Counted from the stretch's first letter, positions 2,457 to 27,469 are shown. The stretch: DNA of 64,000 bases from an uncultured Phycisphaerales bacterium (GCA_963755915.1 CAVWLP010000002.1:1-64000); one strand, 5' to 3'. Numbers and translations are program-made. Notes: generated by a model not told the origin, from the letters alone.

Positions 2457-2578
2457 TGTCACGGGGCGCGCCAAAACCAGCCAGGGCGGGGCGCTTCAAA
2501 ACCGGCCAATGTGCTGACGTATTCTATACCGCATCCGTTCTATCCGACGCAACTGTTCCTTGAGTTATTGGTCCCCGT

Positions 2579-5125: not shown

Positions 5126-5242
5126 CCCACCATTGGCTTGCGGCAACCGCCGAAAGCCAAGGTCGATAACCCAATCTCCTGTGCCTCAAAATGGCCGGTT
5201 TTGGCGCGCCCTCAATTGGCCGGTTTTGCGCGCCCCATGACA

Positions 5243-6157: not shown

Positions 6158-6455
6158 GTTTCTTGCGTCTCGACGCCCGCTGTCGCGGGTGCTTTGTCTT
6201 CAATAATTGCAGGGGACTGATTGATACATTCGGCGCCAGCGATTGAAGCCACTCCACCCGGTCCAGTGCCCGAAGCACCTTAATCAGCGACGATAGTGTC
6301 GCTCCATTGCCCGTCTCCAGGTTCTTCACTGCATTCAGCGCAACTCCCGCCATTTCAGAGAGTTGCTTTTGATCGATTTCCTTTCGCAAGCGCAATTGGC
6401 GGAGCTGTGTTCCCACCTCGGCTGCCCATTCCTCTGTTGTCAGTGCAGTTGCCAT
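6150..6455 (-). CDS. hipB: HipB-like XRE HTH antitoxin
   Basis: 101-aa HTH (QKQLSEMAGVALNAVKNLETG) overlapping the hipA start. Confidence 0.85.
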   Translation of the reverse strand: MATALTTEEWAAEVGTQLRQLRLRKEIDQKQLSEMAGVALNAVKNLETGNGATLSSLIKVLRALDRVEWLQSLAPNVSISPLQLLKTKHPRQRASRRKKHV

Positions 6456-6926
6456 TAAAAGCCTTTATTAGGTACATTATCGGATAAATCCTATGCAATA
6501 GTCCTAAAAAAGTCCATTTATGTGAATTCCAAAAATTGGGTTAGTGGTTTCCATCCAATCGTCGCGGTTCCAGAATTCCAAGAGGATCGAATATGCGGAG
6601 GTCAAAGAAGGCGCACGACGCAAGTATTCCGGCTTACACCTCTGCGGCAGGATACGACTCAACGTACTCCTCCTGGCCCGATTCCCCAACGCCAAGAACG
6701 TGCCGAAACGTGGCCAGCTTGCTGGGTTGTTTGTAAAATCGGTTCGGACCTCCGGAGTATGTGCCCGACGAAGGCGCTCGTTTCCTGTACACAAAAACTG
6801 TACACAATTTGTTGGAAAACATGGCAAATAAGGGTATCATGGAGCCTCACGGCTCAGGGTTGTAACTCCCTGAGGATGTCAGGAGTTCCAGCATTCATCG
6901 GCACTTAGGGTTTTCGAGCGAATCAC

Positions 6927-6971
6927 GCTCATAACCCGGAGGTCGGAGGTTCGAATCCTCCCCCCGCTATG
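6927..6971 (+). pseudogene. 3' half of tRNA-Met(CAT), an att-site remnant
   Basis: GCTCATAACCCGGAGGTCGGAGGTTCGAATCCTCCCCCCGCTA contains the anticodon loop, T-arm and 3' acceptor strand; no D-arm or 5' acceptor strand upstream. Confidence 0.85.
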
Positions 6972-8548
6972 CCCGGTGCCCGCAAAGAATCATCCGATTC
7001 CTTGCGGGCATCGTCGTTTATGTTCCAGTCGTCGTTTTTCTGCACCACACGCCCATCTGGAAGAACCAGCATCGGCCCGGCCACTTCCTCAATGAATCGG
7101 TTGAGTTGCGGCGGAGTGAGAAGCCCGGCAAAATTCTGCCGCGCTTCAAGGAACTGCGCTGCGGACATCCGCCAGCAGGCCATCTGAATTTGCGATCCCT
7201 CGAACCGCAACTGCTTCTAATGCCTCGCGCAACTGCTCCCGCTTGCTTTCCGCCTCGGCCATCTGCCGCGCGATCGACTTCTTGGCCAACGGCTCGATGT
7301 CGGGGTCGATCAATATTCGGCTCAGCCCAACAAGCAACTTATCCTGCTCGGCGATTTTCGCTTTGAGCCGGTCGGAATCGTTGCGGTTCAAGTCAAGCGT
7401 TTCCTTTGCCATCGCCGCCGCCTCGGCCAAAACAGCGTCCATGTCCTCGAACATCGCCGTCATGGCGCGTGTAACGCGGTCCATCAACTTGTCCTCTCGG
7501 ACGAACACGGAATTGGGGCAGGCTTCCGGCCCCTGCATTTGTCGTTTACCGCAACCGTAATAGTGATACTCGCCCTTGGTGTTCTTGCTCGTTCGGCAGT
7601 GGCAGACGTTTCCGCACTCGGCGCAGAATAAATGGCGCGTGAAGGGCCGCAGTTCCCTTGGTCCTCGCGGCCTTCGCTTGCCGTTTGCGGCAAATCGTTC
7701 TTGAACCCGGCCAAACATCTCATCGTCGATAATCCGCAAGGATTCATCCCGCTGCGTCAACTGGCTCGATTCCTCGTTGAAATGGGGGAGCCGTCGCCCC
7801 GTATCCCGATTCAATCGGAAGCAGCGGCGCAAGTATCGAACCTCACCCACTACCATTCGATTCGTCAGGATGCCGCGCAACGTCGTGAATTGCCACGGCC
7901 TGCCTAAGCGGGTTGGAATGTTTTTCTGGCGCAGCCGTCGGGCAAGCTCTTTCATGCCGATGCTCTCAGATAGGTAATTTGTAAACAAGAATCGAACGAC
8001 TTCCGCCTCCTCCGGCTGAATCGCCAGCTTCTTCTTTCCATCTGGCGCGGCAATGACCTGGTATCCATAAGGCGCTGGGCCTCCGGTCCAGCATCCTTCT
8101 TTGTGCCGCTGGATCAGGCCCCGCGCGTCCGCTCGGCCAATACGCGGCTGTAGTCAGCGGCAACCACCAGTTGCACGCCTCGCGCCAGCGCGTTCGTGCC
8201 TTCGGTGACGCTGACCACCTCCACGCCACACCGTTCCAAATCCTCCACCAGCACATGGGTTTCGGCGGCGCGCCCAAGCCGGTCGAACTTGTAGACGTAT
8301 AGCTTGCCAATCCGTCCGGCCTCGGCTTCCTGAATCAGCCGAAGCAATTCAGTCCGTCCCCCAGTGGTTCGACCGGTCTTGGCTTGGTCGATGAAGTGAA
8401 CCAGCTTTCGGGCCGCCATCCGCTCGCACGATTCAATCTGCACCGCGATACTGGTTGAATCGTCCTGGGAATGACTGGAGTACCGGGCATAAAGGGCGTC
8501 GTGCTTACCGCTCTCCTGATGATTGTTGATTGTCGCCACCATGGTCAT
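6929..8548 (-). CDS. Large serine recombinase (resolvase + recombinase + Zn-ribbon + coiled coil), frameshifts near 8115 and 7205
   Basis: ALYARYSS (catalytic Ser), DRLGR, GPAPYGY, LFCAECG...YYGC Zn ribbon; C-terminus IAGGGFEPPTSGL is read antisense through the tRNA fragment. Confidence 0.9.
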
Positions 8549-8891
8549 TGCTCCGATTGCGCTGTCTATATAGTTGTACGGCGCGTGCCGCGATCATCTC
8601 GACCAGCCATCGCCGCGCCTTGGCCCGGTCGAGCGTGAACATTTTACCATCGGGAGCATCGGAGGACCGGCGCCAGGGGAATATTTCGGCAAGGATTTTG
8701 TGGTCTGCGATTCGACGGCTGACACGACCCGCCTCCAGCGCGTAAGCGAAAGCGCCGACCTGTGCCGGTCGCCCGCGTAATAGCCGTATGGTAGATGTTA
8801 GGTATAGTCAAAGTCAATGTTATATTCCAAGGCATACGGGATTCCCCAGCCCATCGCCGGGCCTCCGGCTGCGATCTTCCGCCGCGCATTC

Positions 8892-9047
8892 TTCCCCGCT
8901 CCCGGCCCATAGCGGAAGGGTTTTTCTGCCGGGTCGGGGGTTGTCAATGTGGATCGCCCAGCGGGAGGGGTCCCCGTGTACTCACGGGGAGGGACATTGA
9001 CAACCCCTGGCACGGCACACAATCGAGCTATGGGCCCGGAGCGGGAA
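8892..9047. repeat. ~155-bp nested inverted repeat (long hairpin)
   Basis: TTCCCCGCTCCCGGCCCATAGC/GCTATGGGCCCGGAGCGGGAA; GGGGTTGTCAATGT/ACATTGACAACCCC; TCCCCGTG-TACT-CACGGGGA. Confidence 0.85.
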
Positions 9048-9139
9048 TCCCCAAGCTGCCTGCGCAGCAGTCCCTATTCTTCTGGTGTCTTTTCTGGAAT
9101 GGTCGGTATAATCGGCATCAAACAGGAGAAGGATTCAAC

Positions 9140-9391
9140 ATGGCAAAAGGCAAAAGCGCCACTCGCCCGTCCAAGCCGGATGATAAGCCCAAGACCCTCC
9201 AGCGAACCTACCGCTTCAACACAAAACTATTTGAGGCATTTGAAGACGACTGCGCTACTCACCTGTCAAACCCCAAGCGGGTCATAGAGGCGTTGATCCT
9301 TCACTGGCTGGATGCCGACAAAGACGACCGCGCCGCGATGGCGCACAAACACCGCGAACGGATCGGGTCCGCCTCCCGCGACGACGAATAA
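9140..9391 (+). CDS. Small putative ribbon-helix-helix DNA-binding protein
   Basis: AGGAG upstream; QRTYRFNTKLFEAFEDDC...PKRVIEALILHWL fits a strand-helix-helix pattern. Confidence 0.6.
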   Translation: MAKGKSATRPSKPDDKPKTLQRTYRFNTKLFEAFEDDCATHLSNPKRVIEALILHWLDADKDDRAAMAHKHRERIGSASRDDE

Positions 9392-9474
9392 AAATCTGTC
9401 CGGCGGTGTGGCGCAACGCGTAGGCGCATTGCTGCGCCGCAATTCCTGATTATTTGCCAAACAGGCTGGTGGAA

Positions 9475-9963
9475 TTATCTGGCGGGGTCTCTTTGGGCTG
9501 TTGTTTCAGCGGGCATGGGCGATCTGGCTCGGGTCTTGGCAGTGATTTGGGCGCTTCCTGCCTGCGCCGGGTCCATCACCGATCGTCGGTTACGGCGATT
9601 GGTCGCCAACGCATCCAGAAACACCTCAAATCGGTTGGCGGCGCTGGCCCACGCTGCATCCTTGTGTTCCGGCCTGACCGCCGGCGTGTGGCGAAGGAAC
9701 GTGCGCACATACATCGCCAACATCTCCCGGACCAGCTCATGCTGTGTCTGTTGGTCCTCATGCAGCTTTACCAGCCGATTGAAACAGCGGTCAACGGCCT
9801 TGAGCATGATTTGCTCCTGCTTCTCGCGGTATTCGGGCATCAGCGCTTGGCGGGCGGCATCTACAACGACTGAGCCAAGGGACGATCTGGTTAGTGTCGC
9901 CTGCACCTTGATGATCTTGAGCAACTCGTCGTCCAGCCGGATTGTCAGGGGATACTTATCCAT
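9475..9963 (-). CDS. CopG/RHH-family relaxosome accessory protein
   Basis: LTIRLDDELL...SLGSVVVDAARQAL N-terminus; TGATG overlap with the relaxase stop; resembles the RHH gene of Tn4371-type elements. Confidence 0.7.
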   Translation of the reverse strand: MDKYPLTIRLDDELLKIIKVQATLTRSSLGSVVVDAARQALMPEYREKQEQIMLKAVDRCFNRLVKLHEDQQTQHELVREMLAMYVRTFLRHTPAVRPEHKDAAWASAANRFEVFLDALATNRRNRRSVMDPAQAGSAQITAKTRARSPMPAETTAQRDPAR

Positions 9964-11504
9964 CAAAGTTCCTGGCCCATGTCCAAATCGCGACCCTGTT
10001 CCGTCGTGACATTGTTCACGTCCGTCATGCCGGTGGCCGCATCCCGGTCTGCTTGCTTGCCGATGAACTTCTCGAAGTCGGCAACATCGACTTCATAATC
10101 GCCGCCCTCCGCATGGGTGATTCCCGTGCCGGGCCTCCTGGCCCACGATTCGACTAAGCGCTCTGCTTTGTCCACCCTGTCGCGCGCCTCGTCCGATGTC
10201 GTATCACTGTCCGCGCGGTCAAGAAGGTGGTCGAGATGCTTGGTTGGGGAATAGATCCCATCGTTGGCCTTGGCTTGCTCGACGATCTCCTGCGCAATCT
10301 CTCGGCGCTCCTGCGCCGCCCTGCCAAGCTCCGCCACGTCGCCAATGCTCAAGGATTGATACGCCTCGCCGTCCTGGACGCGCGCATAGCGCATCGTTCC
10401 TGATTCCTCCCGGATGACAACAAAGCGCCGGTCGGTGATCTCATCGACCCGGCCCACGGCAACCACTTCACCGGATATGGCATGGTCAATCGGCTCCCTC
10501 GACACATACATGGACTGGTTCCCCAAGCTGCCGTAAAGCTGCTTGATGATGTCATGGTGCGCGCCCAGTTCCATCAACTGCCGCTTGAAGTCGGGGTCAA
10601 GCTGCCACTTCGTCCCTTGTATCTTCTCGGCCAATTCCATGCTCTCAAGCCATTGCAGGCGCGCAATCACCAGCGGCCTATCCGACCTTCGCCAGCCAAT
10701 CTGCACGTCCGGCGACACGTCGATGACGTGCTTCTCGTCCATGTTGCGCTCGATGGTCCGGTCCAATGATGTGAACCGCTCCGCCTGCACTTCCTTCTCT
10801 CGGGCCTGCTCCATCTCCCTTTCCGTACGTTCGCCAAGCAGGTCCGTCGCCGCCTCGGATGCCCTCTGCCGGATGCCGTAACCAATGTATTCCCGGCGCA
10901 GGATCAGGTCTTGACCCTGCTCGTCCTTTCCCCGGAACAAGATGTGCGCATGCGGATTGTCGGTGTTGTGGTGCTCGATAGCGATCCAATCGAGTTTGGT
11001 GCCAACATCGCGCTCGACACGCTGCATCACATCCCGCACATACGCGCGCATGTCGGCGATGTCATACCCCTTCTCCGGCGACAGGATGAGCCGAAAGTGA
11101 TGCCGATCCTCCTCCCATTCGCGTGTCACGGATCGACCATCCACCTTGTCTTGCTGCGCATCGAAGAACGTCCCGCGCTCCCCATTCTTGCTGGCGCTGT
11201 CGCGGGCAAGGTAGCCGGTATGGCGCGCCAGTCCGCTGCCGCTGCGCCGGGAATGGAACCGAGAAAGCATCTTGACCGTCGCTCGTTGTGCGCGGATTGC
11301 TGCCGAAAGGCATGGTTCCGCGCCCCTGAACCCGCCACGGCACGCGCCATCTGCGCGCATCTTGGTGCGCCAGAACCCGCGCCCGAGCCGCTTAGCGATC
11401 TCCCCGTTGACGCTCCGCTCGCGCCCTCTGCGTCCACCAGTGCGCCCAATGCGATCCGAATCAACGCCGTCTCTTGAATTCGACCGATTTGCACGTTTCG
11501 CCAT
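9963..11504 (-). CDS. MOBP/VirD2-like relaxase (DUF3363-type)
   Basis: HTGYLARD (catalytic Tyr), HHFRLILSPEKG, and WIAIEHHNTDNPHAHILFRG (HUH motif). Confidence 0.9.
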   Translation of the reverse strand: MAKRANRSNSRDGVDSDRIGRTGGRRGRERSVNGEIAKRLGRGFWRTKMRADGACRGGFRGAEPCLSAAIRAQRATVKMLSRFHSRRSGSGLARHTGYLARDSASKNGERGTFFDAQQDKVDGRSVTREWEEDRHHFRLILSPEKGYDIADMRAYVRDVMQRVERDVGTKLDWIAIEHHNTDNPHAHILFRGKDEQGQDLILRREYIGYGIRQRASEAATDLLGERTEREMEQAREKEVQAERFTSLDRTIERNMDEKHVIDVSPDVQIGWRRSDRPLVIARLQWLESMELAEKIQGTKWQLDPDFKRQLMELGAHHDIIKQLYGSLGNQSMYVSREPIDHAISGEVVAVGRVDEITDRRFVVIREESGTMRYARVQDGEAYQSLSIGDVAELGRAAQERREIAQEIVEQAKANDGIYSPTKHLDHLLDRADSDTTSDEARDRVDKAERLVESWARRPGTGITHAEGGDYEVDVADFEKFIGKQADRDAATGMTDVNNVTTEQGRDLDMGQEL

Positions 11505-11631
11505 GACACCGCTCCTGAAGTTGAAGATCAGCAGTCACTTACGCATCCAACGCTTACGTTCCACCTTGCCAAAATACCCTGAATTCGCCGTAAGTGGTTG
11601 CATCTGCTACGGATACAAAACACCTGAATCA

Positions 11632-11645
11632 CCCCTTTATCTTGC
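11632..11645 (+). other. Candidate oriT nick site
   Basis: CCCCTTTATCTTGC contains the MOBP-type consensus YATCYTG^Y, ~130 bp upstream of the relaxase start. Confidence 0.55.
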
Positions 11646-12009
11646 ATTCCAATTTCATTATTTAACTCATACATCTCAAAACCATTGTCATAGCCACAGT
11701 CGATTATACCAAACAGATACCGAACTTCAAGTTTGCATCTTCCGCTTGGCATTCTCAACTGGGAAATGGTCTGAAAAGGCCAACTATTGGCTCGCCTGTC
11801 CGTCCGCAAAGATGTGCGCAATTGGCGCGGCGGTGACGTGCTGGTAAGCCAGTGCGAGCTTCGAGAAGGACGCGGAGAATATCAACAGGCGAGCCAACGG
11901 CATGCTAAATCCGATGCCTGGAATATACGAGCCAGGGGTCCTAATCAAAGCTGAGAAGCGTGGCGATAAGCATCTTTGAAGGCCCCACCGACCCAACCGC
12001 AGCGATTCT

Positions 12010-14461
12010 GTGACTCGCGACGCTGCAAAATTGCCTGCTCCCTCGCCTCCAAAGTGCTATAATTCTCCCGTGCGAAGATCCGGCGTCCATCGCTCAATAA
12101 TCTCTACAGCAATCCTCTTCCTCGCCTGTCGAGCCTGGAGCGAGCCTGTGACAGTTCAAATTATCGATACCGAGGGTAAGCCGATTCCCGCCGCAACGGT
12201 TGCAAAATTGAACGGCGTGGCGGTCGTCGAGTCCTGGATATTGGATACGCGCCCCGTTGCCCTCGGAGTCACGGACGCCCACGGCGAAATCCGACTCGGA
12301 TGCGATCCGTCCCGGCGTTCGGCATTTCTCGCCCAGGCGTCTGGCAAAGCTCCGAGGTTATTCGGATTCTGGGGATGTGTTCCGCCGGAATATCGGCTCA
12401 CGCTCCAGCAGTCCAGGGGGACGTTTAGCGGTCGAATCATGGATGCCGGAGGCAAGGCTCAGGCGAATGCTTGGTTGCGAATTCGGGTGGTCAGGTACGA
12501 ATTACTCCTGCCGGTGCGCCCTTTCGTCGCGGATTATCCGGCCATCAGCTATGACCTGAGCGCCCGCACCGACGCCGATGGGCGATTCAATCTGCCTGCT
12601 CCGCTGGAAGGATCGGTGGAGAGCGTCGACGTTAAGCAGAACGGCATCTGGCATTCGACAACCCAACCCGGCTTGGACGCAGCTTCCGAAGCACTCAAGG
12701 ATGGAAGTTTTGTGGGCCGCACGGACCCCGCCGCGATCGAGGCTTCGGTGCCACCCGTGGCCATGCCAACGACCATGCCGACGTTGGCGATTCACTTGCG
12801 CGTCTTTGATGCGTCCACGAATCGCCCGATAGAAAATATCCGCGTCATTCCGGGCGGCTGCAGTTTTCCCGATCAACTCTTCCACACGCTGTGGCCGTAT
12901 CGATTGGCGTCTCCATGGAAATGAGGTGACGTGGACCTTTTACGATAATGCCTGGGCCTATTTCTTGCGCGTTGAGGCGGATGGTTATGCCGCGGCGCCG
13001 ACCAGAATCGTCAAGGCGTCCGAAAAAGATGTTGATGTAGAACTGTGGCTCGTCAGGCCAAGCTTACATACCGTTGCCGTACGCACGCCATCGGGCCATC
13101 CGGCGGTCGGGGCCAAAGCATACCTTTCAACTCCGACGATCGTTCTGAATGTTCCGATGCTCGACCCGAAATGGGACGATGACCAGCCCATTGGAGTAGC
13201 AGCGGACGATGGGGTCATTCACTTTGTCCCACCGAATGAACCGTATAGACTGGCGATCGAGCACGTCGAAGGTTCGGCAGAGGTCTCCTGCACTGATTTG
13301 AGCGATAAGCCGGTGGTCCTCGATGCCTGGGCAAGCGCGAACATTCAACTTGGCTCGGTCAGGCGCCCTCTGGGTGCGCGGACATCGAGCCTCAGTCTTG
13401 TTACAGCAAATTACTGGGGTGCCCGATTGACTGGGCGGGCTCCTACTTTAGCGATGCCAATGGCTTCCTGAAAATTTTCACTTGGCGACCTGGTAGATTC
13501 TTTACTTCAATAGATCTTCCAGACGCCACGGCGGCAGTGGCCGGTTGGAAGCACCTGCAATTGTCGCGACTTTTGAAGTCGGGCGAGCACGTTGATTTGA
13601 AGGTGATGACTGGCGTGACGACGGTGCAGGCGTACCTGCCGGATTTGCCAGGATACAAATGGTCATGGCTGTCGATCGTCCCCGCCGGCCCCGCGGCGGA
13701 ACTGCCACCCGATGTCAACCGCCTGAGCGGCAAAGCCCAGGATGCCGCAGTCGATAAAGCCCAGGCACTGTGCCGGACCCGCAGGCGGAGGAAGATGCCA
13801 TCAATGAAATGCGTTTGCCGATACGCGGTAGTGGCTGCGTATCCGTCGCCGGGCTGGGGCCCGGAACATACGTTCTCGAAGGGTATGTACAAGCGTGTTC
13901 TGATCATCATCAGGCCGACTACAGATTGAATTGGTATTTCTCCGTGCCGGCATCGGCTCCTGCGGTGGTCGATCTTGGGACGGTCTCGCTCGTGCCCTCC
14001 GATCCCAGCGCGCTTAGAGTTGGACAATTGACTCCCGATCTTGTCGCGACGACTCTTGACGGCCAGCGATTCTCGCTGAAACGTCTGCGAGGAAAATGGG
14101 TCTTGCTCGATTTTGGGGGACCTGGTGCGGATTCTGCGTCGGGGAGGAGCCAACTTTGAAGGACGCCTACGAAGGTTGGTCGCGCGATGGCAGGCTGGCG
14201 ATGATCTCCGCATCGGTGGGCGACACCGCCGAGGAGGTCCGCCGCCACGTCGCTGAGAGCAAGCTGGCCTGGACGCAACTGGTCCTCGGTCCGCACGAGA
14301 AAACGAACATACCGGAGCTGTTTGCTGTAGACGGGTACCCATGCATCATGCTGATCTCGCCAAAGGGTGAGCTGATTGAAACGAGGTTACGTGGAGAATC
14401 AGTACGCGAGGCCTTGATGAAATACCTCGGTCCACCGTCGCCACCTGGGAATTTGCCGTGA
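12010..14461 (+). CDS. Exported multidomain protein with carboxypeptidase-regulatory-like repeats and a C-terminal TlpA/redoxin domain (several frameshifts)
   Basis: Signal-like N-terminus; D.eGKPIpgA.V and TDADGRF repeats; LRGKWVLLDF/WGTWCGFC (CxxC) and GYPCIMLISPKG. Confidence 0.75.
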
Positions 14462-14584
14462 GTGATGCACTTGCCGACCTCTCAACACCTCTACGAGAGG
14501 GATTTCGTTGCTGACAGTCTTCCGGCAACAGTCTCCCAAGTTGAATAGTCGGTGTCGTTGGGGCGTTGATTAGCAACGGCAGGA

Positions 14585-15641
14585 CTAAAAACCGACCGGA
14601 TCGGAAATCGGGCTGGAACTGTGAACTTGCCGAAGAACATCCTTGGTGGTCATCGCCTCGCCATGGCCATCCGCAAACACCACATTCCCACCGAATGTCG
14701 ATCGAGTATTGCCAAGAATAAAATCGCTTTGCACGCGGTGACGAACCGCGAGCAACTCCGCTGTCGAGTTTTGCGACAGATATTCGATGGGATTTGGATT
14801 GAATAATCCATTGTGAATCGTGGATTCGTCTTCGTCTAATAACAATTCCACCTGCGATGCTGGGCGAATAGAGGAAATCTTCCCATTGTAATTATACCCA
14901 AATCTCTCATTATTGCCAAACAACGGCACGGTATAGCCTGGAGGCATTGATACGCCAATCGGCAAATTGCTATTATTTTTGTATCTATTGTTGTTCCAAG
15001 GCGGCAAATTGCGTCGGCGGTAACTTTCTCCCCGTAGCTTCGTCGTAGGAAGATGCGTACACAAGCGTCACGTAAATGTTAATCGAGTAGCTATAACGAT
15101 AGGCACCCTTTCCGGTTGGGTCAGTTGCCGGTCGATCCCACAAATTGTCCGAAGGGCAACGAAGTACGCTTGCAAGCATATCCGATTGGCTACTCAGGAA
15201 TGGTGCAATTGCAGAATCACTCAACGATTGAGCATATACCTGCGTACTACTAAATGAAGGCAATGTTACGCTTGCCGGATCAACGACGTTCGGATTTAAC
15301 ATTCCGCTAATTGGATCATGTTGCGCGTGCCAAGCAATCCAATCGAACGACGATTTGGCGTAAGACCCATCAATTGCCTCATATTCATTCGATCCACCAG
15401 CAGGCAATTGTCCACCGTTGTTCTGAGCATATTGAAATATCCCAAGAACAATCTGCCGCATGTTGTTAAGACAGACAGCGGCATTCGCCGACTCCCTAGC
15501 CCTCGACAATGACGGCAACAGCACTGATAATAATATGCCAATGATCCCGATTGACACCAATAGCTCGACTAACGTAAATCCAACGCCTCGCGATTGCGTC
15601 GAACGGCCGTCACAGCGAAGTTCAGGCAATTCAAGATTCAT
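14585..15641 (-). CDS. Prepilin-type N-terminal cleavage / DUF1559-like pseudopilin with H-X9-DG-type C-terminus (frameshift near 15050)
   Basis: GFTLVELLVSIGIIGILLSVLLPSLSRARESA...CLNNMRQI, LRCPSD, YSYSIN, GNVVFADGH. Confidence 0.9.
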
Positions 15642-15839
15642 GCGATTACGCTGCCCCTTGTCGAATGCTAATAATACACCATCATTCAATAATACAATAG
15701 AAGCATCTAGCCAACTTAAACGACTCTGGCGAGGATAATGAGATATCCTCACACGCGCCACTTACAGTAAGCGAATCAGTGGCCTGTCTCGCACAAACAT
15801 GGTTAATCGTGACTCTGCACACCTCATCAGTAACGGGCC

Positions 15840-16633
15840 TCAACCGCCACGGCCTGCTTCATCCGCTTTATCCGGCTGTGTCGCATGCGCGACCGTGGGG
15901 TAAAATTCGCCGCCATACGACTTACTCTCAGCTGGCCGCTCGGCGGGCGCATCCAGCGCAGCCGCACCCAATTTCCGAATCTGATTGAGCGCGGCTGATA
16001 CTGATGCTCCATCGGCGCCGGTGCAGCATTGGTTGAAGTTTGACTATTACAATCATTTGATGTAGATGCATTTCCGATCTCCTGGGGTGGAGAGTTCTTT
16101 TTGAGCAACTCAATACGACCGTATCGCGAAGCCCGGATCACTCTTGCCATACCGGGCCAAGCACCCCCGATCGATACAATTCCAAGGGCTATGGCGATTC
16201 CGTAGGTCGCAATGGTACCGTCCCACCACGCATAGGAATATTTAACCAGCGGATGCTTTACGCTCAAACTATCCATAAATGACACTACACTTAGCTCGTA
16301 GCCTTTCGCCGACACCTTAAACATTATGGGTTGATAGATTCGGGGGACATCACATACAAACGGATCATAGCGTACATCCATAACTTTTATGCCTGGGACT
16401 GTCCTGCGCTTGCCGGTAATTTCATAACCACTAACCGTCGGCCGTATCGTAATGTCGCACAAAACAGGGTTTCCATCCAATGCGGTCGCAGTTACCCTAG
16501 ACTCGAATTCTTGCTCACTCATCTGCCGAGCCGGTTGATCACTCGACAGCAATTTAACATAGGCCAGCCAAACTCTCAGCGCCAAACCTAACATGGCCCA
16601 TTTCCAGCGACTCGCGGTTTCAAGATAAGCCAT
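15840..16633 (-). CDS. Hypothetical membrane protein (C-terminus probably frameshifted, ending KSYGGEFYPTVAH...)
   Basis: Two hydrophobic segments; co-oriented within the cluster. Confidence 0.6.
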
Positions 16634-16758
16634 ACTGTTCACCAGAAATCTTAGTCACTGCGTTCACTATCTTCCCTCAATGCCGCCCAATCATAGCTAC
16701 GATCGAAGTCGACCCTTTCGCAAATCTCCCACGTACTATTCCCACTTTGATATAAACC

Positions 16759-17710
16759 TCAATTCGCAACATCGATGGCACGCTCTTTCCATCTATCCTT
16801 TGAGTTAAGAGCCTCGGAAAGCCAGGAGTAAAAATGAGACCCCGACTTCTGAGCATCCCTCCACGTCGCGACCGCCTCTGTCACCTTCGTGATTTGTTCT
16901 GCACTTCCTTCATCACGGACGACTGAAAGCAGCATCCAACAATAGATGCTAAAATCATTTTGAAACTCTTCGGCGCCCGATGTTCCCCCATATAAGTCTC
17001 TCAAAGCACCGAGGGCATTGGTGACGTATTCATCCTGAACCGGCTTTCCATCCTTGACGAGCGTATCTAACCATTCGATGAAACTGGAAAAGGTTGGGGA
17101 ATAAAAACTTCCGATGTTTTTCCGCTCGCCAACGGAAATTGTCTGTAACTCGTTAATTTGTTGATCGCTCAAATCAGCGAGGGTTGCGAGTTGGCTATCT
17201 GCCACGATATCTTCTAGGGTCGAGATGCCATCGGGGCCGCCGTCCTCTGCCGCCAAGAGAATGGCACCCCTGGCATGGAGATGAGCCATGGAAACAGCGC
17301 CTGACTTGGCGAGCACTTTTGCGCAGAAAGAGCAAGCTTGATATTGACGCCACATCTCGCGTTGAATGCATGGGCCAACCTATATCAAGGGAGCTATCAG
17401 AAGTTACCCGCAATTTGGAGAGAATCCACTTTCGCAGGGATCCTGGCACAAATCCTTGATTTAGCCCTATGGCCAAATGTTGTAACGCACCTTCGTAATC
17501 CGAGTCACCGAAGGTTAAACTGCGGTAAACTGAAATCATATAAGGTCGCAAATCCGTAAACGAGCGGGGCACTTGAAGCACATTTTGGACTGTCTCGCCA
17601 CAACCAATTTTCTCTCTTGATGCGTCATCCGCCCCAGCAGGTTGATTTAGAGCAAGCGCAAACATCAACATCAGCGAGAGCACCGAAATTTGCGACAACC
17701 GCTTCTCCAT
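16759..17710 (-). CDS. Hypothetical exported protein (frameshift near 17350)
   Basis: Signal peptide MEKRLSQISVLSLMLMFALALNQPAGA; ORFs 17195..17767 and 16759..17355 overlap. Confidence 0.6.
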
Positions 17711-17821
17711 ATTGCCTTCATCTCGGTTCACCGGCGGCGAATTACGTTTTTGTCGCACCGTGCTCATGCCGACGATCAGTCGTTTGCTGACCCACCGATG
17801 ATGCTGCGCTGGTAGTGCACA

Positions 17822-18364
17822 TCAAGAGGATGCGCTTTCACGTTGTTTTAACGCTTTCCGGTTCTTTTCGACGTTGGAATGACCGTGAACGACTATGCTT
17901 ATAATCGCAATGGAGAGTAATATAATCGCGCGAACGAGGGTAAACCACCCGATGCTTTGCTTTCCGATTCCGAAGCAGCCACAGTAAATATCCAGGTGGC
18001 GCAAGATCGCGGACGTGATAGCAAAAACAAATGCAGTTGAAAGACAAGTAGCCAGCACACTTGCCCCAGCAACCAAGGCGTCCGCAAGAAAACAAATCGC
18101 TATTATCACTTCGAGCCAAGGCAGGATTATCGCGATCAGCAGTGACAATCGCGGACCGGTCAATTGAAATCGGTATATGTCCTCGAGAAATCCAAAAGGC
18201 TCGAGCAACTTTGAGATCCCGCTAAGCAAGAAAACTCCCCCTAAAAACATCCGCAGCACGAGATTGGCCGCCTCCCGCAAGCGATTCGCTTGGGATTGCC
18301 CAGCGGGCGAATCACTTCCCATTTCAGAGACTAATCCGTAGCCGGATGAATTAGTCAGATTCAT
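17822..18364 (-). CDS. MauE/DoxX-family membrane protein
   Basis: LRMFLGGVFLLSGISKL, LPWLEV and the CGCFG motif; four TM segments. Confidence 0.9.
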   Translation of the reverse strand: MNLTNSSGYGLVSEMGSDSPAGQSQANRLREAANLVLRMFLGGVFLLSGISKLLEPFGFLEDIYRFQLTGPRLSLLIAIILPWLEVIIAICFLADALVAGASVLATCLSTAFVFAITSAILRHLDIYCGCFGIGKQSIGWFTLVRAIILLSIAIISIVVHGHSNVEKNRKALKQRESASS

Positions 18365-19460
18365 TTTTATTGTCTCTCCATTCTTGCCATCCCCCCGCGT
18401 ATATTCTGACGTCCTTGAAGCCTGCAGTCACGAATGCGGACGCAACGGATTTGCTAAAAGGACAGGTTGAACTCTGACAATAGACAACTATAGTTGACGT
18501 CACACTGGCGCCCCCCCTTTTAATGGCATCTACTCGAGCGTCATCGGAATAGTCAACAGGAATATTGATGGCTCCCGTGATATGGCCTAACGCGAAATCA
18601 TCGCTATGTCTTGCGTCTACAAAGATACAGTTCCCTTCCCGAAGGAGTCTCCTCGCTCCACTCAAGTTCGGCTGTGCCAGATCGTCGACGAAAAACGCCT
18701 TCGCCACCTGATCCGCAATCGGCTTTGAAGCCAGGAGCCCACCTACATGAAGGCTATGATATGTAACCGCCACGACTATCGACGCACAAATGACACAAAA
18801 GGCCTGGAGTTGAATCGATGGGTTGATTTGCCATCTCGTTTCTCTAGTCGCGTACTTAATTAGGAGGATCATGCATAAAGCAAGACAAACGGCTCCCGCC
18901 ACAGTGACTTTCATGCGCAACAGCAATCCGTCCGCATTGATTGGAGTCGAGGAGATGACTATACCATTTCCATCCCAGTAAGGAATGAAGTCATTAAACT
19001 TAATCGTCCTGAACGTATGTGGCGGATCAAATAAATCAATTTGGTCATTTCTGGTGCGAAGACAAAGCACGTAATGATTAAAATCCATTTCGGCCGGCCG
19101 AGACGCCACGTGAAGGATGACTGGATATTTGCAGTTACGCAGGAATTCCGCAGTTAAGTTACTGGCGGTGAGGGCGTATAAGCCGTGGTCCGCAGCAGCT
19201 TCCTTAATATCTTCCATCGAAGCTCCGTGATCATCTGGAATATATTTAGGAGTGAGCAGGTCTGCAAAGGGAATTTCCACGCCTTCTCGCAATCCTGCCG
19301 CGTAAAGGCAAAATATACCGCAGTACGGGGCATAGTCACGCACGCGGAATAGCTCCGCATCATCTGATGCTACTGCTTGATTCCTACCGCCGAACAGAAT
19401 TGCAACAATGGCGGCAACTCGGCCCATAGCTCCCAATGCATGAATTCGATGATACCCCAT
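18351..19460 (-). CDS. Peptidase C39-like domain + two TM helices + rhodanese domain fusion
   Basis: PYCGIFCLY (catalytic Cys), GASMEDI, PVILH, HYVL...LFDPP, YWDG; then FVDAR...GHITGAINIP...VVYCQSSTCPFS...YAGGWQEW. Confidence 0.85.
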   Translation of the reverse strand: MGYHRIHALGAMGRVAAIVAILFGGRNQAVASDDAELFRVRDYAPYCGIFCLYAAGLREGVEIPFADLLTPKYIPDDHGASMEDIKEAAADHGLYALTASNLTAEFLRNCKYPVILHVASRPAEMDFNHYVLCLRTRNDQIDLFDPPHTFRTIKFNDFIPYWDGNGIVISSTPINADGLLLRMKVTVAGAVCLALCMILLIKYATRETRWQINPSIQLQAFCVICASIVVAVTYHSLHVGGLLASKPIADQVAKAFFVDDLAQPNLSGARRLLREGNCIFVDARHSDDFALGHITGAINIPVDYSDDARVDAIKRGGASVTSTIVVYCQSSTCPFSKSVASAFVTAGFKDVRIYAGGWQEWRDNKNESD

Positions 19461-19471
19461 GGGTTTTCCCT

Positions 19472-20773
19472 TCAAATTCGCGTCCCGTTTCGGCTCCGGA
19501 GCGACTTTGTAAAAAGAGCGATTGCGACCAAAAGCCCGCACCCAAGAAGGATGCAAATCATAGTGACGTAGGGATTTGTCGATCGGAAAACAGGGCTAAT
19601 CACTACTGGCTCTGCCAATGCGTGGCCATTCTGCTGCACCGTCGTAGCGATATTTGCGATTGAACTTGGAGAGGGCTCATGCGCGGTCGGCGGCGGCAAT
19701 TTCTCCGCCGAAGAATCTGATCCTATATCAGAATGGTAGATTTCAGCCTTTATTTGGTCCAGAACGGCGGGATCCATGTACGGAACGGCCTTGCCTTGCT
19801 TCCATATATAGTTAATAGTCCGCGTTTTGGCATCCTCCATAATGACTCTGCTGCCTTCCGCCGCGTCCGAAGGCGCGAATATATTCGGGTTGGCCGCGAA
19901 GTCAGGGTTCAGCTCTATCGAGTTTCGGTGCGCAACAATCTTCTGATCAAGCAAATAGTCGCCGTACTTGCTGTGACTCTCGTAACGACCTTGTAACATC
20001 ACCGCGTTGCTGCCGGTGGTCCCAAATGTCACACTGTCTAAAGTGAACCCCACATAACTATCTGGTGTGCGAGAGAAATCCGGTTCGAGCGTGCCCTTTG
20101 CTGGCAAATAGCCGTTCGATGGAGACAGCCAAAGCGACAGCTTACCCCAGGTTGTATTCGTGGTGACCAAACAGCATTGAACTCCATCTACCGTTTGAAA
20201 CTTTGGGTCAATTCGGGAGGATCCCCCCCGTATCATTTTGACTAGAGTTGTGCCGGTGCCATTCCCCAGATCAACGTATCCGTCAAGATAGGCGCCAGTG
20301 CGTGCCGCTAGCACCACCTCGTCTCGGAACTCGGCAAAATGTGCCTGGTCAGTGTGAATTTGAATCTCTTTGACCGCGCTATTAAAATAAAACCAATCGC
20401 TTCCCGAGAGAATCTTTTCTTCAGTATGTGGCGGCAACACAACCCCGTTTGCCGAATATTGGTGAAAATCGAATTTGAGGTGAAATCGGCCGTCGGCCGC
20501 CATGTACCGTTCAACAGTAGCTTCCGTCACATCCTTTACAGGCCTGGTCCCAGGATATGCAATATCAGACTGAACTTCTAGCTTTGAAGCCGAGTTAGCC
20601 ATGAGGGAAAATGACTGCTCCATCTGGTTGATTGCGGCATCGAGCGACGGAAACGTCTGCCCAAATGTATATTTGCAAAAGATCAAACACCCTGAGACAG
20701 CGACAGCTATCACTACATGCCTCGGAATAATTGGGCGCAAACCGAATCGTTTTGATCCGTTCTGCGTGGCCAT
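19472..20773 (-). CDS. Hypothetical exported, C-terminally membrane-anchored protein (LolA/sorting-like pattern)
   Basis: N-terminal hydrophobic segment, VDGVQCCLV...LWLSPSNGYLP, C-terminal TM helix with basic tail. Confidence 0.65.
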   Translation of the reverse strand: MATQNGSKRFGLRPIIPRHVVIAVAVSGCLIFCKYTFGQTFPSLDAAINQMEQSFSLMANSASKLEVQSDIAYPGTRPVKDVTEATVERYMAADGRFHLKFDFHQYSANGVVLPPHTEEKILSGSDWFYFNSAVKEIQIHTDQAHFAEFRDEVVLAARTGAYLDGYVDLGNGTGTTLVKMIRGGSSRIDPKFQTVDGVQCCLVTTNTTWGKLSLWLSPSNGYLPAKGTLEPDFSRTPDSYVGFTLDSVTFGTTGSNAVMLQGRYESHSKYGDYLLDQKIVAHRNSIELNPDFAANPNIFAPSDAAEGSRVIMEDAKTRTINYIWKQGKAVPYMDPAVLDQIKAEIYHSDIGSDSSAEKLPPPTAHEPSPSSIANIATTVQQNGHALAEPVVISPVFRSTNPYVTMICILLGCGLLVAIALFTKSLRSRNGTRI

Positions 20774-21320
20774 CCTAAAAATATCGCGTATGATCAAGTC
20801 TACTCCGATTGTTATGAAGTTAGCCGTCGACAAGAATTCTAAGGCCGTTGGAATTAGCCTCCTCTTCCATCAATCAAGACAACAAGTCGGCTACATTTCG
20901 GAGACAAGTGCCAGCGCATGGGCTAAAATCGCGAGGTCGTTCTTGTACTTTAAAACCATGCGCTGGCACATTTGCCGAAATACATGCCTGTCTCTGGTAT
21001 CAGCAATTTCTCCTCTGACTATCAACTGGAGCATCGCGAAGATCAATAGTCCCAATTCTGCTGCTGATACTGTGCATAGTTGCCAGCCAGAGATGGCTTC
21101 GCTCTGGCATCAATTTGAGGACTACCCCTGGCACGAATAGCCCTGTGCTTCAGTTTGACAGCCGGGGCAACTTTGACTGCCAGCTCCTTCGCTCTGACAG
21201 GTCTTGCCGTTTCCACTCTTGTCATTGCTGCACGCACCTACTGTCATGTTTTCGCAGCCTGTGCCACAATTTCCACTACTATTAGTACAGCCTGTATTAC
21301 CACCAGCACCGCCGCGAACA

Positions 21321-22710
21321 GAGCTATAACCGAAAGTCGTGGATGGTTGGCGGCTGAATAAAAGCGGCGTACCTTCGGTGGATCGTGACTCAACGGTTCA
21401 CCAGCGTCCCACGCGGGACAGAAAGGATACGCCTCATGGACAGTAACTCATTTCAGATGCACCTGGCAACGGTGCCGGTCATCGATGACATTCTTCGCGA
21501 CGGCGCCCGCCGGGCGTTGCAGTCGGCCATCGAGCGGGAAGTCGACGAATATATCCAGCGTAACCGCCAACAGGTCGACGATAGCCGGCCATCGCCTGGT
21601 CGTCCGCAACGGCCATCATCCAGCCCGGAAGATTCAGTCGGGCAACGGCGCCGATCGAGGTGCATCAGCCGCGGGTGAACGACAAGCGGGTCGATGAGCA
21701 GGGCAACCGCATCCGCTTTACTTCCAAGATTCTTCCGCCGTATCTGCGCAAGACCAAGGCCATCGAGGAATTGGTGCCGTGGCTCTATCTGAAAGGGATT
21801 TCCACCAGCGATTTTCCCGAAGCGCTGGGTTGCCTGGGCCACGACGGCTCGGGCCTGTCGCCCACCACCATCGTTCGGATGAAAGAAGTCTGGCAAGGTG
21901 AATACGAGAACTTCTGCCGGCGGTCGCTGGAAGGCAAGCGATACGTTTACCTGTGGGCCGACGGCATTTACTTCAACATCCGCCTGACCGATGACCGGCC
22001 CTGCGTGCTGGTTTTAATGGGCGCTTTGGAAGATGGGACCAAGGAACTGATCGCCATGATCGACGGCCAGCGCGAAAGCGAGCAGAGCTGGCTGGAACTG
22101 CTGCTGGACGCCAAGAGTCGCGGGCTGACGCGAATCTCCGAAGCTGGCCACCGGCGACGGGGCGCTGGGATTCTGGAAGGCCCTCAAGCAGGTCTATCCC
22201 AGGAACCCGCACGCAGCGCTGCTGGGTTCACAAGACGGTGAACGTGCTGGACAAACTGCCACGCGGCCAGCAGGTGTCGGCCAAGAAGATGCTGCACGAG
22301 ATCTGGATGGCGGCGACGAAGGAACAGGCCATCAAGGCGCTGGGGAAGTTCGCGGCCACGTACCAGGCCAAGTTCCCCAAGGCGGTGCGAATGCCTGCTG
22401 AAGGACCAGGAGGAACTGCTGGCGTTCTACGACTTCCCCGCCGAACACTGGCAGCATCTGCGCACCAGCAACCCGATCGAAAGCACGTTCGCCACGGTGC
22501 GGTTGCGAACCTACAAAACCAAAGGCGCCGGCTCGCGAACCGCCTGCCTGGCGATGGCCTTCAAACTCGTGGAGTCAGCTCAGAACCATTGGCGAAAACT
22601 CAACGGCAGCGCGTTGCTGCCGGAGGTCATTGCAGGAGTGATCTTCAAAGATGGAACGAAACTCGCCGCTTGAAGCTGTCGCGGCCATCCACTACTTTTG
22701 GGAATATCTC
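21321..22710 (+). mobile_element. IS256-family insertion sequence (1390 bp)
   Basis: IRs GAGCTATAACCGAAAGTCGTGGATGG / GAGATATTCCCAAAAGTAGTGGATGG; 9-bp TSD CCGCGAACA at 21312-21320 and 22711-22719. Confidence 0.95.
21436..22673 (+). CDS. IS256 transposase (frameshifted)
   Basis: VVRNGH, SKILPPYLRK, LYLKGIST, YLWADGIY, QRCWVHK and FPAEHW..LRTSNPIESTF motifs. Confidence 0.92.
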
Positions 22711-23202
22711 CCGCGAACATCCGCAGGTGCTGAACCGGACGTCATAGCGTAAAACGCTATGACTATGGCCACAATCATTGGAGAAACTACTTTTGCGACG
22801 CGATCCAAGGTAAAATTGCTCATAAGAGCTCCTAGGGTAAAATGTCTCTACGTAATTGGCTATTCTTCTGCGTGTTGCCGCCTTGACCGACGGTTGGAAT
22901 TTAATGTTGACGCCGCATCGGGATGCCATGCAAAAAGCGACGGCGATCAAATTTTAATGGAACAAAATGACGAACTTCAAAAAAAGAATCCCAAGATACC
23001 AACGTACGGCGGTCCAAACCCGTTAGTAAGGCCTGAGATTCATTCAGGAAACCTCCTTTCCAATTCGCATCATTGCCGTCAACTCAGCCTCGTAACCGAC
23101 TAAACCAAAGATGTGAGTTGAATCTATCTGTTCCGGAATCATCCATTTTTATACCATTCCTATTTCCTGCACCAGCAGACCTTAGCTGAAGCCTCCTAAA
23201 GA

Positions 23203-24294
23203 CTAGTTGGCAAGCGCTCGCTGGACTCGAAAAGCCGTACGAATACTTGCCTCAAAGGACGGGTGGACGTGACGGATATACTCCTTAAAAAACTTATTCG
23301 CCTCCGACCCTCGTCCAAGACAACATAGATCGTCGATAAGGAAACCCCAAACGCCACCTTCGTACATAAAATTGTCGTCCCCAACGCAAGTCATCAAAAG
23401 CGGAATCGCCTCGGTGTATCGAGCTTCCTGACTTAATTCCATGGCATAAATAAGAGCCCAAACCTTTGGTTTTTCTCCTGTCCTCTGCATTTGTGACGAC
23501 CGCAAGCTTTCTAGCAGGGCGTGCGAATCATCAGTGCGGCCCATAATGTATAAGAGCTCGCCCAGCCCCGGCTTGCAATCTCTGGCCGCCTTGACCACAT
23601 CGGGATCGTCCGGCGACGCCCATCGAATTAAATTGGTATATATGCTACAAAGTGAGACAGCATAGGGCGTACCCCCATGTTGTTGAATGCAATCCCATAC
23701 TACATCCTTGAGGTCTTGCTTGTCGTGCGCAATAGCGAGAAGGACCAAGCTGCGGCTGGCTGGCGTTGCGTTCGCGCTATTTAGCTCTTTATCCACACGG
23801 CTAGCGATTGCGTCGTAAAACAGAAGGCTAGTTACGTCGTCCTGCGACACAGAATGAAATGCGGGAGCAATTTTGATCAAAGAGAGGGACGAAAGACCAG
23901 AGTTCGAAAGAATTTCTGAGAGATCACCTTGCTCCTGCACGCTTACTGATCGGCCCATTGACCTATCACTTTTCCATCGTTCAAGCCAGCTCACCAGCTT
24001 CGGATCTGGACTATCGACTGCACGAGCGATTAAAACCGGATCCCGAAGATCAGCTTCGGATGCAGGTGGAATTTCCACCCGCTCAACTATTTGCGCCCTA
24101 TGCCGGAATACGAATTCGCTAACTAAGATCGCCACCGCAATAGACGAAAACCCTAGTACAATGAAAGCTGTACCAACCCTACTAGAGGTGAAAAAGCGTT
24201 TAAAAGGCGATTTTCCCATCGCTACCGCCATCGCAAGGATTTGAATCTCGCTGCTTATGTAGTGGCAGCATGTCATGCTTTGAGAATTTGTCAA
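23203..24294 (-). CDS. Hypothetical membrane-anchored helical (TPR-like) protein
   Basis: 363-aa ORF with an N-terminal TM helix and C-terminal TPR-like helices (LGELLYIMGRTDDS, RYTEAIPLL). Confidence 0.6.
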   Translation of the reverse strand: MTNSQSMTCCHYISSEIQILAMAVAMGKSPFKRFFTSSRVGTAFIVLGFSSIAVAILVSEFVFRHRAQIVERVEIPPASEADLRDPVLIARAVDSPDPKLVSWLERWKSDRSMGRSVSVQEQGDLSEILSNSGLSSLSLIKIAPAFHSVSQDDVTSLLFYDAIASRVDKELNSANATPASRSLVLLAIAHDKQDLKDVVWDCIQQHGGTPYAVSLCSIYTNLIRWASPDDPDVVKAARDCKPGLGELLYIMGRTDDSHALLESLRSSQMQRTGEKPKVWALIYAMELSQEARYTEAIPLLMTCVGDDNFMYEGGVWGFLIDDLCCLGRGSEANKFFKEYIRHVHPSFEASIRTAFRVQRALAN

Positions 24295-24865
24295 CTGTAA
24301 TCTGCTAACGCAGAGCCGATTGCGGTGCGAGCAGACCCCTGGATTCCAGACCCGAGCGTCGCCGCGGTTTTCTGTATCCCCGCGATTTTACCGCGTTATA
24401 AGGGTGGCGAAGAATCTTCGCGGATTCTTACCCCACGCCTGAACCGTCGCGGGTAGTGATTGCGATCCGTGGCTTTCAGCGAGAATCGCCCGCGTCACCT
24501 TTGGGGCGGGGCGGGTGCTTTGCGGAACGGATTGCGTTGTGCTCGGGCTCACCACAATTGTCACTTTATCATCGCGGTTTCTGAGCCAAAATCCAGGCGG
24601 CTCGCTCGGGCCACACACAACGACTGTCCCGGTCAACAACGCAACCGGCTCGATAACGCAGCTTCCCCCACCAAAACCGATTTTTCAGTTGCAGAATCGA
24701 GTTACCACGCGAATAAGCAATTGTTTGTGAATCCGTTGCCGCCGCTGCCGCCTCTTATGCGGCGACATGAAAATGCGCCAAAATACTGCTCGCGCCGACA
24801 AGATCGCGAATTGCCGGATGGACGGCACATTTTGTGGGTGGCGGGCGTAGCATGCCCCCGCTATG

Positions 24866-24901
24866 AAAATCGGCCTTGGCGTTAGCGCCAAGGCCGATTT
24901 T
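24866..24901 (+). terminator. Rho-independent terminator (probably the original tRNA-Met terminator)
   Basis: Perfect hairpin AAAATCGGCCTTGGCG-TTAG-CGCCAAGGCCGATTTT directly after the att repeat. Confidence 0.8.
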
Positions 24902-24929
24902 ATTGGACCGACTCGTTACGAACCTCCGA

Positions 24930-25095
24930 CTTTTGACCACACTGACACAGTTGCAGCAGCAGGAAGACCGCCTGCTCAACCTCCGTCTACTGGAGGAAAC
25001 CAGTACCGACACGTTTGCGAAGAAGAGCACCGAACTGCGTGACCGGATTGCCGACGTAGCGCTCAAAATGGATGCGACGAACCGCGACCGGTTGA
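24930..25095 (+). pseudogene. Fragment of a serine recombinase coiled-coil region
   Basis: QQEDRLLNLRLLEETSTDTFAKKSTELRDRIA resembles C-terminal regions of planctomycete recombinases (recognised from memory, not searched). Confidence 0.5.
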
Positions 25096-25257
25096 TTTGT
25101 ACTGGCGGATTCTCTCGGTAAAATGATGACTGCCATCCACGGCTAACTGCGCTGGCGGTGTCGCAGCCCAGTCGATATTTTTGATTTCCCATTCGGACTT
25201 TTGTCGGAGACCGTTTGGATCCCAAAAAGACTCTCCGATAGAGAAGGAAACAACACC

Positions 25258-27171: not shown

Positions 27172-27469
27172 TTCTCAATCAGGCCGCATGGCGAAAGGAA
27201 GCCCAAAACGCCACTTTTACGACACGACGAGTAACGTAACGGCCCCCCGCTACTTCCCTTACTCAGGCAGAGCCAACAACTTATGTGGCTCTGCCTGATT
27301 TTATTTTAGGGGCGATTTCAATCGCTTCCCCTAAACTTCCCCTGGCCGGACAGAAGGGAGCCGATCCGGCGGTGCCGATTGCCAACTCGCCGAAGGTAGC
27401 TAAGGTATATGGCCGTTGCGTGAAAGGGAAATTGGTGCCGTCGATCGAGTCAGAAATCTCCGCGCCGCC

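Follow-up and report, generated by a model that had tools for sequence, protein, structure and literature searches.

The DNA analyzed here (the window) makes up the initial 64 kb of contig C2 in the assembly of an uncultured Phycisphaerales bacterium (G000; three contigs, 6.6 Mb). Close to its left end, two copies of an 11-bp direct repeat enclose a 17,894-bp region that runs from 6961/6972 to 24854/24865. The left copy overlaps the end of a 43-nt stretch matching the 3' half of initiator tRNA-Met (tRNA-fMet) and lies within the reading frame of a reverse-strand large serine recombinase (LSR), and the right copy is followed by a hairpin terminator. Between the two copies are a relaxase gene, small conserved backbone genes and a long variable cargo. 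It is quite probable that this region is an integrative mobilizable element (IME), which would have been inserted by its LSR at the last bases of the initiator tRNA-Met sequence and mobilized through the type IV apparatus of resident regions resembling integrative and conjugative elements (ICEs). Comparisons drew on 41 genomes (G000 and 40 relatives) and on metagenome contigs from non-source samples, the best run of which contains at most 0.33 of the sampled words.

Boundaries of the element

The 11-mer CCCCCGCTATG matches exactly at two places in the window, as a preliminary description of this DNA had reported: a left copy (attL core) at 6961-6971 and a right copy (attR core) at 24855-24865, both on the plus strand. 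The chance expectation for such matches is 0.07, and two or more were found in none of 100 shuffled sequences. A coincidental repeat that marks no discrete element is scarcely credible; the shortness of the repeat is all that speaks for it, and it is contradicted by the shuffles and by the related element, the empty sites and the metagenome contig described below. The perfect hairpin terminator that had been noticed after the second copy is also present, at 24866-24901, and together with the following ~35 nt (24866-24935, plus strand) it corresponds to the sequence found directly 3' of intact tRNA-fMet genes in relatives.

A 24.1-kb relative of the element is present in G012, a genome of the same genus. 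Homology between the two covers 6896-9391 (90%), 9546-11724 (88%) and 95 nt at the right end (24771-24864, 79%), with nothing in between, and it ends at the core on both sides, where the flanks differ, as does the cargo. The conserved right-end arm (24771-24854, plus strand) includes the left half of a predicted attP dyad (24831-24851). Upstream of the left core of G012 is another type of the non-tRNA arm described below for our window, and its right end reads CCCCCCACTAT, followed by unrelated DNA in which the first gene called is ilvD.

The search for empty sites that the preliminary description had proposed identified two, in G003 (same genus) and G013 (another genus). In both, an intact tRNA-fMet gene is followed 4-6 nt later by the hairpin and ~35 nt homologous to 24866-24935. 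The same hairpin sequence also stands after remnant junctions in G002, in G015 and at C3:88553 of the genome itself. Additionally, a soil-metagenome contig (X1) passes from 6970 on to 24871 across five other letters; as a single contig with 30 letters on its shorter side, it is weak evidence when taken alone. Other breakpoints in empty-site genomes, or a hairpin that never follows tRNA-Met, were looked for as signs against these ends, and neither was encountered. Taken together, the repeat, the G012 element, the empty sites and the X1 contig show, by comparison of sequences, a discrete element with the boundaries given above. No other copy of the element, or of its insertion sequence (IS), was found elsewhere in the genome.

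The recombinase and its target

The LSR gene (8548-6932, reverse strand) is a 539-aa equivalent spread over three frames, the pieces of which match the Pfam domains Resolvase (PF00239, E=2.4e-20), Recombinase (PF07508, E=2.1e-13) and Zn_ribbon_recom (PF13408, E=4.6e-10), the domain set of a serine integrase. Its position between the repeats, together with that of the relaxase (9963-11504, reverse strand), agrees with the preliminary description. Compared to the intact 539-aa orthologue of G012, the three frames are 97%, 93% and 92% identical. A YARYSS..Q block is invariant in three LSR orthologues and presumably contains the catalytic serine.

The open reading frame (ORF) of the recombinase crosses the core. 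The tRNA 3' half, read in antisense, supplies its last 13 residues, IAGGGFEPPTSGL, and the antisense of the anticodon loop supplies its stop codon. This C-terminal tail is kept in orthologues that are only 45% identical. A by-eye guess that 24876-25121 encodes a recombinase C-terminus was rejected, as this segment resembles none of the recombinases found in the genome or in the loci collected.

When the two ends were joined in silico, the arms 24831-24851 and 6966-6986 formed an imperfect inverted repeat around the first two C of the core. In this predicted attP, 17 of 25 positions are complementary (18 of 25 in G012, with the same center), and other centers gave at most 11, except for a hairpin. 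In silico, the dyad shows the imperfect symmetry around a central dinucleotide that is sought in a serine-recombinase attP of ~50 bp, which would recombine with attB. We infer that the crossover would fall at the CC of 6961-6962 and 24855-24856, in which case the other nine bases of the repeat would come from the element and restore the end of the tRNA.

A close homologue of the LSR was detected in 6 of the 41 genomes. In a wider homologue scan with one genome per species, 69 loci were obtained, 32 with at least 36% identity and 37 more distant. The 32 closer loci are nearly all labelled as Planctomycetota, Phycisphaerae or Planctomycetia metagenome-assembled genomes, with few other labels. 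An antisense tRNA 3' end lies at most 400 nt from the LSR end in 24 of these 32 loci, and an intact tRNA-Met gene overlaps the LSR 3' end in 16. All 24 junctions with the motif are directly 3' of CCCCGCTA and are followed by a hairpin, and the tRNA motif was seen in none of 12 loci inspected among the 37 distant ones. These alignments show the tRNA-fMet 3' end as the family-wide target of this LSR clade. In phage records, nothing closer than ~30% identity to the LSR family was found among the best 15 of 365 entries.

On the basis of these features, the following course of insertion is proposed. The LSR encoded at the left end would insert the element at the final bases of an initiator tRNA-Met sequence, for which the element would bring its own copy of the last nine tRNA bases and a new hairpin. 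Insertion would place the whole element between the tRNA 3' end and the native terminator (24866-24901), and the LSR ORF would span the junction, taking its final 13 residues from the tRNA antisense in the integrated state. In this genome, the copy used as the target would not be the gene itself but the tRNA 3' half that an upstream tyrosine-integrase island has at its right junction.

The tRNA-fMet remnant and the island array

The preliminary description had placed a tRNA-Met at 6961-6971. The match to the 3' end of initiator tRNA-Met holds, but no gene is present at the left flank. ARAGORN called no tRNA or tmRNA gene in the window, and Rfam at gathering thresholds likewise found no tRNA over the same stretch, the only family above threshold being a fluoride riboswitch (1292-1378, reverse strand, 40.5 bits versus a gathering score of 34). 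In a permissive Rfam scan of 6500-7300, the tRNA model matched the T arm only, with 15 bits versus a gathering score of 29, and neither program recovered a complete cloverleaf at the left flank. What is present is a 43-nt remnant running from the anticodon loop to the discriminator base (6927-6969, plus strand), which matches over its whole length, at 100% identity, the 3' half of genes that ARAGORN calls as tRNA-Met in relatives. The place of the tRNA 5' half is taken by a conserved non-tRNA segment (6780-6926, plus strand), the P arm of an upstream island of tyrosine-integrase type. This arm of ~150 nt aligns with five further copies elsewhere in G000 and with others from relatives, none of which is called as a tRNA. 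The proposal of an insertion between a tRNA and its terminator was therefore retained in part: the tRNA 3' end is split from the native hairpin, as the comparison with G003, G013 and G012 indicates, but the left flank is a remnant rather than a gene.

The same 43 nt recur at five more sites of the genome, each after up to ~250 nt of related non-tRNA sequence. A 216-nt query matched 38 of the 41 genomes, and many relatives, spread over the class, have the 43 nt with 100% identity. ARAGORN called tRNA-Met in 18 of 30 fetched loci, and the remaining 12 were the loci that also matched the non-tRNA upstream part. Intact tRNA-fMet genes in relatives have a C1/U72 mismatch and a GGG/CCC anticodon stem, which we take to be hallmarks of initiator tRNAs. 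Because the upstream arm is not tRNA and the 43 nt are shared in relatives, 6780-6969 is read as the right junction of an island integrated into the segment of tRNA-fMet from the anticodon loop to the 3' end, composed of the island arm and a duplicated 3' half. The same alignments place the 17.9-kb element within a tandem array of islands at what appears to be a tRNA-fMet hotspot. Throughout the assembly of this genome there are six tRNA-fMet 3' halves, no 5' half and no intact initiator-type copy. The intact gene is probably located in an assembly gap beside an island array, possibly just left of the window.

Other identities were considered for the repeated tRNA-like unit. A tmRNA was rejected, as the tmRNA gene of the genome lies elsewhere (C2:2332880) and is different. 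A Y-RNA-like identity was also set aside (YrlA, 23 bits versus a gathering score of 69), as was the broader possibility of a Y-RNA-like or intron-containing tRNA, because no Rfam family matched at four paralogous loci and the relatives show junction remnants.

At C3:30815, a comparable remnant junction has a hairpin behind it and then a tyrosine integrase, which is 90-94% identical to integrases located directly 3' of intact tRNA-fMet genes in G001, G006, G007 and G014 (the last an unpublished genome, on which the main conclusions do not depend). The site is a hotspot for such islands, and with several tRNA remnants in the genome it could be argued that the tyrosine integrase of a neighboring island, or homologous recombination between remnants, made the boundaries and that the LSR is a passenger. 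We judge this to be very improbable. The remnants of neighboring islands share 43 nt, from the anticodon loop on, whereas the right end of the element shares only 11 nt. Further, the LSR gene itself overlaps the junction in 24 of the 32 loci, which include distant relatives, and the predicted attP shows the dyad symmetry that a site for a serine recombinase should have. Insertion by the LSR is the reading kept in what follows.

The second array at tRNA-fMet remnants (C3:25528, 30815 and 88552; loci L001 and L002) includes an island of ~58 kb (C3:30816-88552) that contains the tyrosine integrase, a RES/Xre pair, a relaxase (C3:38529-39878) and a coupling protein (C3:36357-37652), and that terminates at a tRNA remnant followed by a native-type hairpin. 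A group II intron domain was detected at L002:2235-2313. In the window itself, a third core, CCCCCGCTA, occurs at 27244-27252, 2.3 kb past the native hairpin, and a similar spacing of 2.2 kb is found in G013. Upstream of this core is a different conserved arm, present in many relatives, and the core is followed by ~92 nt of the hairpin-bearing left end of a tyrosine-integrase island, without the integrase; the segment 27179-27345 looks like a remnant junction on this basis. Left of the element, a hipBA toxin-antitoxin module (2082-6455, reverse strand) has its hipA gene interrupted by an IS21-type element, with the HipA C-terminus at 2082-2474, IstB at 2579-3469, the HipA N-terminus at 5708-6157 and the helix-turn-helix antitoxin at 6150-6455. 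An IS21 element 68-72% similar to the one that splits hipA interrupts another tRNA-remnant junction (C2:571855-574818). At C2:3699152-3702079, 26 tRNA genes, one of them for tRNA-Met, are packed densely into 3 kb.

Transfer, cargo and related elements

The intact relaxase (513 aa, 9963-11504, reverse strand) is of MobP/VirD2 type, with matches to Pfam Relaxase (PF03432, MobA/VirD2 nuclease, 26.5 bits versus a cut-off of 24.6) and DUF3363 (84 bits) and with the motif HHNTDNPHAH. Its score against NCBIfam RlxS (NF041267), 290 bits, is far under the cut-off of 850, and by these scores it is classed as a member of the superfamily and not as an RlxS equivalog. The non-coding stretch upstream of the relaxase (11505-11724), which is 88% identical to G012 up to 11724, is a candidate region for the origin of transfer (oriT). 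An ORF at 11528-11821 and its G012 counterpart were rejected as proteins, since their translations do not look protein-like.

Two further backbone proteins are conserved on the plus strand. The first (83 aa, 9140-9391) is 96% identical to its G012 counterpart and has no match in Pfam, NCBIfam or PDB sequences. The second (9515-10009) shares 79% identity with the C-terminal portion of a protein in G012 and has no family match. The ribbon-helix-helix (RHH) genes of the preliminary description were not recovered by Pfam or NCBIfam, and the 83-aa protein resembles this fold by eye only. The small backbone ORFs gave no match in searches of Pfam (E up to 1), NCBIfam and PDB sequences, and their placement in the RHH or another family was dropped. 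Five paralogues of the 83-aa protein (51-76% identity) occur elsewhere in the genome, three of them at most 3 kb from a VirB4-like match or in the C3 island.

The lack of coupling-protein and mating-pair genes that had been claimed for the element is supported by the ORF scan, as no type IV coupling protein (T4CP), VirB4 or other Pfam family of the type IV secretion system (T4SS) was found among 32 ORFs of at least 60 aa in 6929-26538. Coupling-protein, VirB4 and T4SS families are also absent from the 10 ORFs scanned in the G012 element. The element therefore combines its own integrase and defined attachment sites with a relaxase and, in the scanned ORFs, no coupling protein or mating-pair apparatus, which is the composition of an IME. 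Elsewhere in the genome, T4CP matches are located at four places and VirB4-like matches at three, and paralogues of the relaxase (48%, 47% and 36% identity) adjoin three of the T4CPs. One such set is in the island C3:30816-88552, at another tRNA-fMet remnant. With a relaxase and no coupling or mating-pair genes, the element would borrow for its transfer the type IV apparatus of resident ICE-like regions, in which related relaxases stand beside coupling proteins. It is plausible that a helper shares the cell with the element, whose backbone resembles a reduced relative of the ICE-like regions.

The cargo (11725-24770) has no homology to the G012 element. By Pfam and NCBIfam, it encodes on the reverse strand a DUF1559/prepilin-type protein (14985-15761), a MauE/DoxX membrane protein (17822-18364) and a C39 peptidase-rhodanese fusion (18351-19556), and on the plus strand an IS256-family transposase in at least three fragments (21385-22747). 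A reverse-strand protein of 453 aa (19472-20833) resembles only Planctomycetota hypothetical proteins. The preliminary description had seen a peptide cluster in this region; neither paralogous small peptides nor a precursor-peptide family was found in the cargo, and the name is a mere label for a region that holds the MauE/DoxX, C39-rhodanese and Planctomycetota hypothetical proteins. GC content is 49-50% in 14401-21300 and 22901-24400, compared to 59% in the backbone and the genome. Four metagenomes (soil, bog and peat), compared at 90% likeness or more, have contigs that cover 6300-12275, and they leave the cargo uncovered except for the IS at 20908-22899, with 12276-20907 and 22900-24227 being uninformative as to absence. 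The view of the cargo as a variable load is borne out by its absence from the G012 element and, as far as coverage goes, from the four metagenomes that hold the backbone. The cargo of the G012 element (L043 and L044, G012:C18:130000-169999, local 15255-26090) includes a PAS-GGDEF-HD protein and an ORF of 3611 aa with Ig-like and carboxypeptidase-regulatory-like repeats.

Several observations weigh against an IME that is moved by its own LSR. The LSR frame is broken twice, with one base missing near 8121 and one extra near 7154, and at 8121 part of the depth in X2 and X4 is without the extra G; the breaks hint weakly at an element that may not be able to move on its own. For a serine recombinase, a common core of 11 bp is long. 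The contigs, all from non-source metagenomes, show neither a circular junction nor an excision product of the element, and no oriT was found, with only one 9-nt inverted pair upstream of the relaxase, outside the conserved stretch. Eight of the 32 LSR loci are without the tRNA motif, and their matches are C-terminally shorter. Six of these eight end in a similar short core after non-tRNA DNA and L094 has no such core (L076 and L090 were outside this inspection); the motif-less loci would fit attP-like or tandem junctions of the kind found in G027. Finally, within 3-kb flanks the relaxase backbone accompanies the LSR at just three of the 32 loci (G012, L066 and, in part, L076), and several element types are thus served by the recombinase clade.

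The frame breaks and the missing excision product could also indicate a fixed, decayed remnant, either a dead IME or a stripped ICE, with a pseudogene recombinase and moved only with the neighboring islands of the array. The fragmentation of the IS256-family transposase in the cargo fits this explanation, as do the relaxase and 83-aa paralogues of the resident ICE-like regions, from which the backbone may derive. We regard it as unlikely. In the region G000:C2:4866905-4875000 (~8 kb), the essential genes rpoB and rpoC are both split into many frames, the longest open frame having 655 aa. Their fragmentation indicates that the assembly has frequent indel errors, so the equally broken LSR is no proof of a pseudogene and may reflect such errors; the same caution applies to the IS256 fragments, a DUF4230 gene (29507-30500) and a T4CP (C3:487296-488590). 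Moreover, G012 has the same compact backbone without a T4SS and an intact LSR, LSR frames are unbroken in most contigs of related elements in the four metagenomes, the backbone is widespread in soil and peat metagenome contigs and the element ends are well preserved. On the IME reading, which we retain, the element may still be active today.

Among known systems, the ssrA islands of Dehalococcoides offer several parallels (McMurdie et al. 2011, PMC3146451). These islands have a CcrB-family serine recombinase, DsiB, beside attL and a 20-bp repeat of the tmRNA 3' end, form tandem arrays and are proposed to be mobilizable. As in our element, a reverse-strand serine recombinase of ~540 aa lies beside attL, insertion is in the 3' end of a tRNA-like gene with a short direct repeat (20 bp there, 11 bp here), arrays form downstream of the gene, the cargo is variable and low in GC, and mobilization rather than conjugation is proposed. 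Unlike those islands, the element targets tRNA-fMet and not tmRNA, carries a relaxase and resides in Planctomycetota. Also, no second small serine recombinase resembling DsiA was detected here with Pfam and NCBIfam, and the ssrA-island integration module, with DsiB, DsiA and an ssrA target, is not matched. The likeness to DsiB is one of description; the G012 orthologue of the LSR scores 89 bits against NCBIfam CcrB, which has a cut-off of 900.

Phage phiPam-6 of Paracoccus aminophilus is inducible and combines a serine recombinase at tRNA-Met with a 17-bp repeat that is its attachment site (Dziewit et al. 2014, PMC3925955). It resembles our element as a serine-recombinase element at tRNA-Met with a short flanking direct repeat, and differs in being a tailed phage of an alphaproteobacterium rather than a relaxase-bearing island. 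It is absent from the best 15 of 365 phage entries for the LSR family. The rumA-targeting streptococcal ICEs with serine integrases have their attachment site within the integrase gene, the C-terminus of which is exchanged (Ambroset et al. 2016, PMC4701971). Those elements are self-transmissible and alter a protein-gene target, unlike the case here, where a tRNA 3' end would be rebuilt.

According to an IME review, serine-recombinase IMEs insert within dispensable genes and tRNA 3' ends are targets of tyrosine integrases (Guedon et al. 2017, PMC5704250). Our element is like the reviewed IMEs in having an integrase and a relaxase without mating apparatus, in its tandem accretion with ICEs or decayed elements and in its short serine-recombinase repeats, and unlike them in the combination of a serine recombinase with a tRNA 3' end. 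The authors of Islander likewise state that serine-family integrases are not known to target tRNA genes (PMC4383910). We found no literature on serine-recombinase elements at tRNA-fMet in Planctomycetota, the supplementary tables of TIGER/Islander and Integrase-On-Demand aside. The type of element is already described, and it is new for the host phylum and for this recombinase clade together with a MobP relaxase. It adds a relaxase-bearing member from Planctomycetota to the small published set of serine-recombinase elements at tRNA-like genes.

The results fix the ends of a mobile element to the base, in a phylum that has received little study, and identify the initiator-tRNA locus of Phycisphaerae-type bacteria as a stacking site for several unrelated islands. 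As the attB is identical over 43 nt across the class searched, intact LSR orthologues could be candidates for integration tools in Planctomycetota. A more far-reaching and, taken as a whole, rather doubtful reading is that a Planctomycetota-type LSR clade uses the initiator tRNA gene as its attachment site, with the element rebuilding the last nine tRNA bases and supplying a hairpin from inside the LSR coding region. The exchange of the C-terminal tail, with 13 antisense residues in the integrated state and a different tail in the excised state, might then serve as a built-in directionality switch, and in this genus the LSR might have replaced the tyrosine integrase on a cut-down ICE derivative. 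If this were true, a small IME could use the hotspot of its ICE relatives and their transfer machinery alike.

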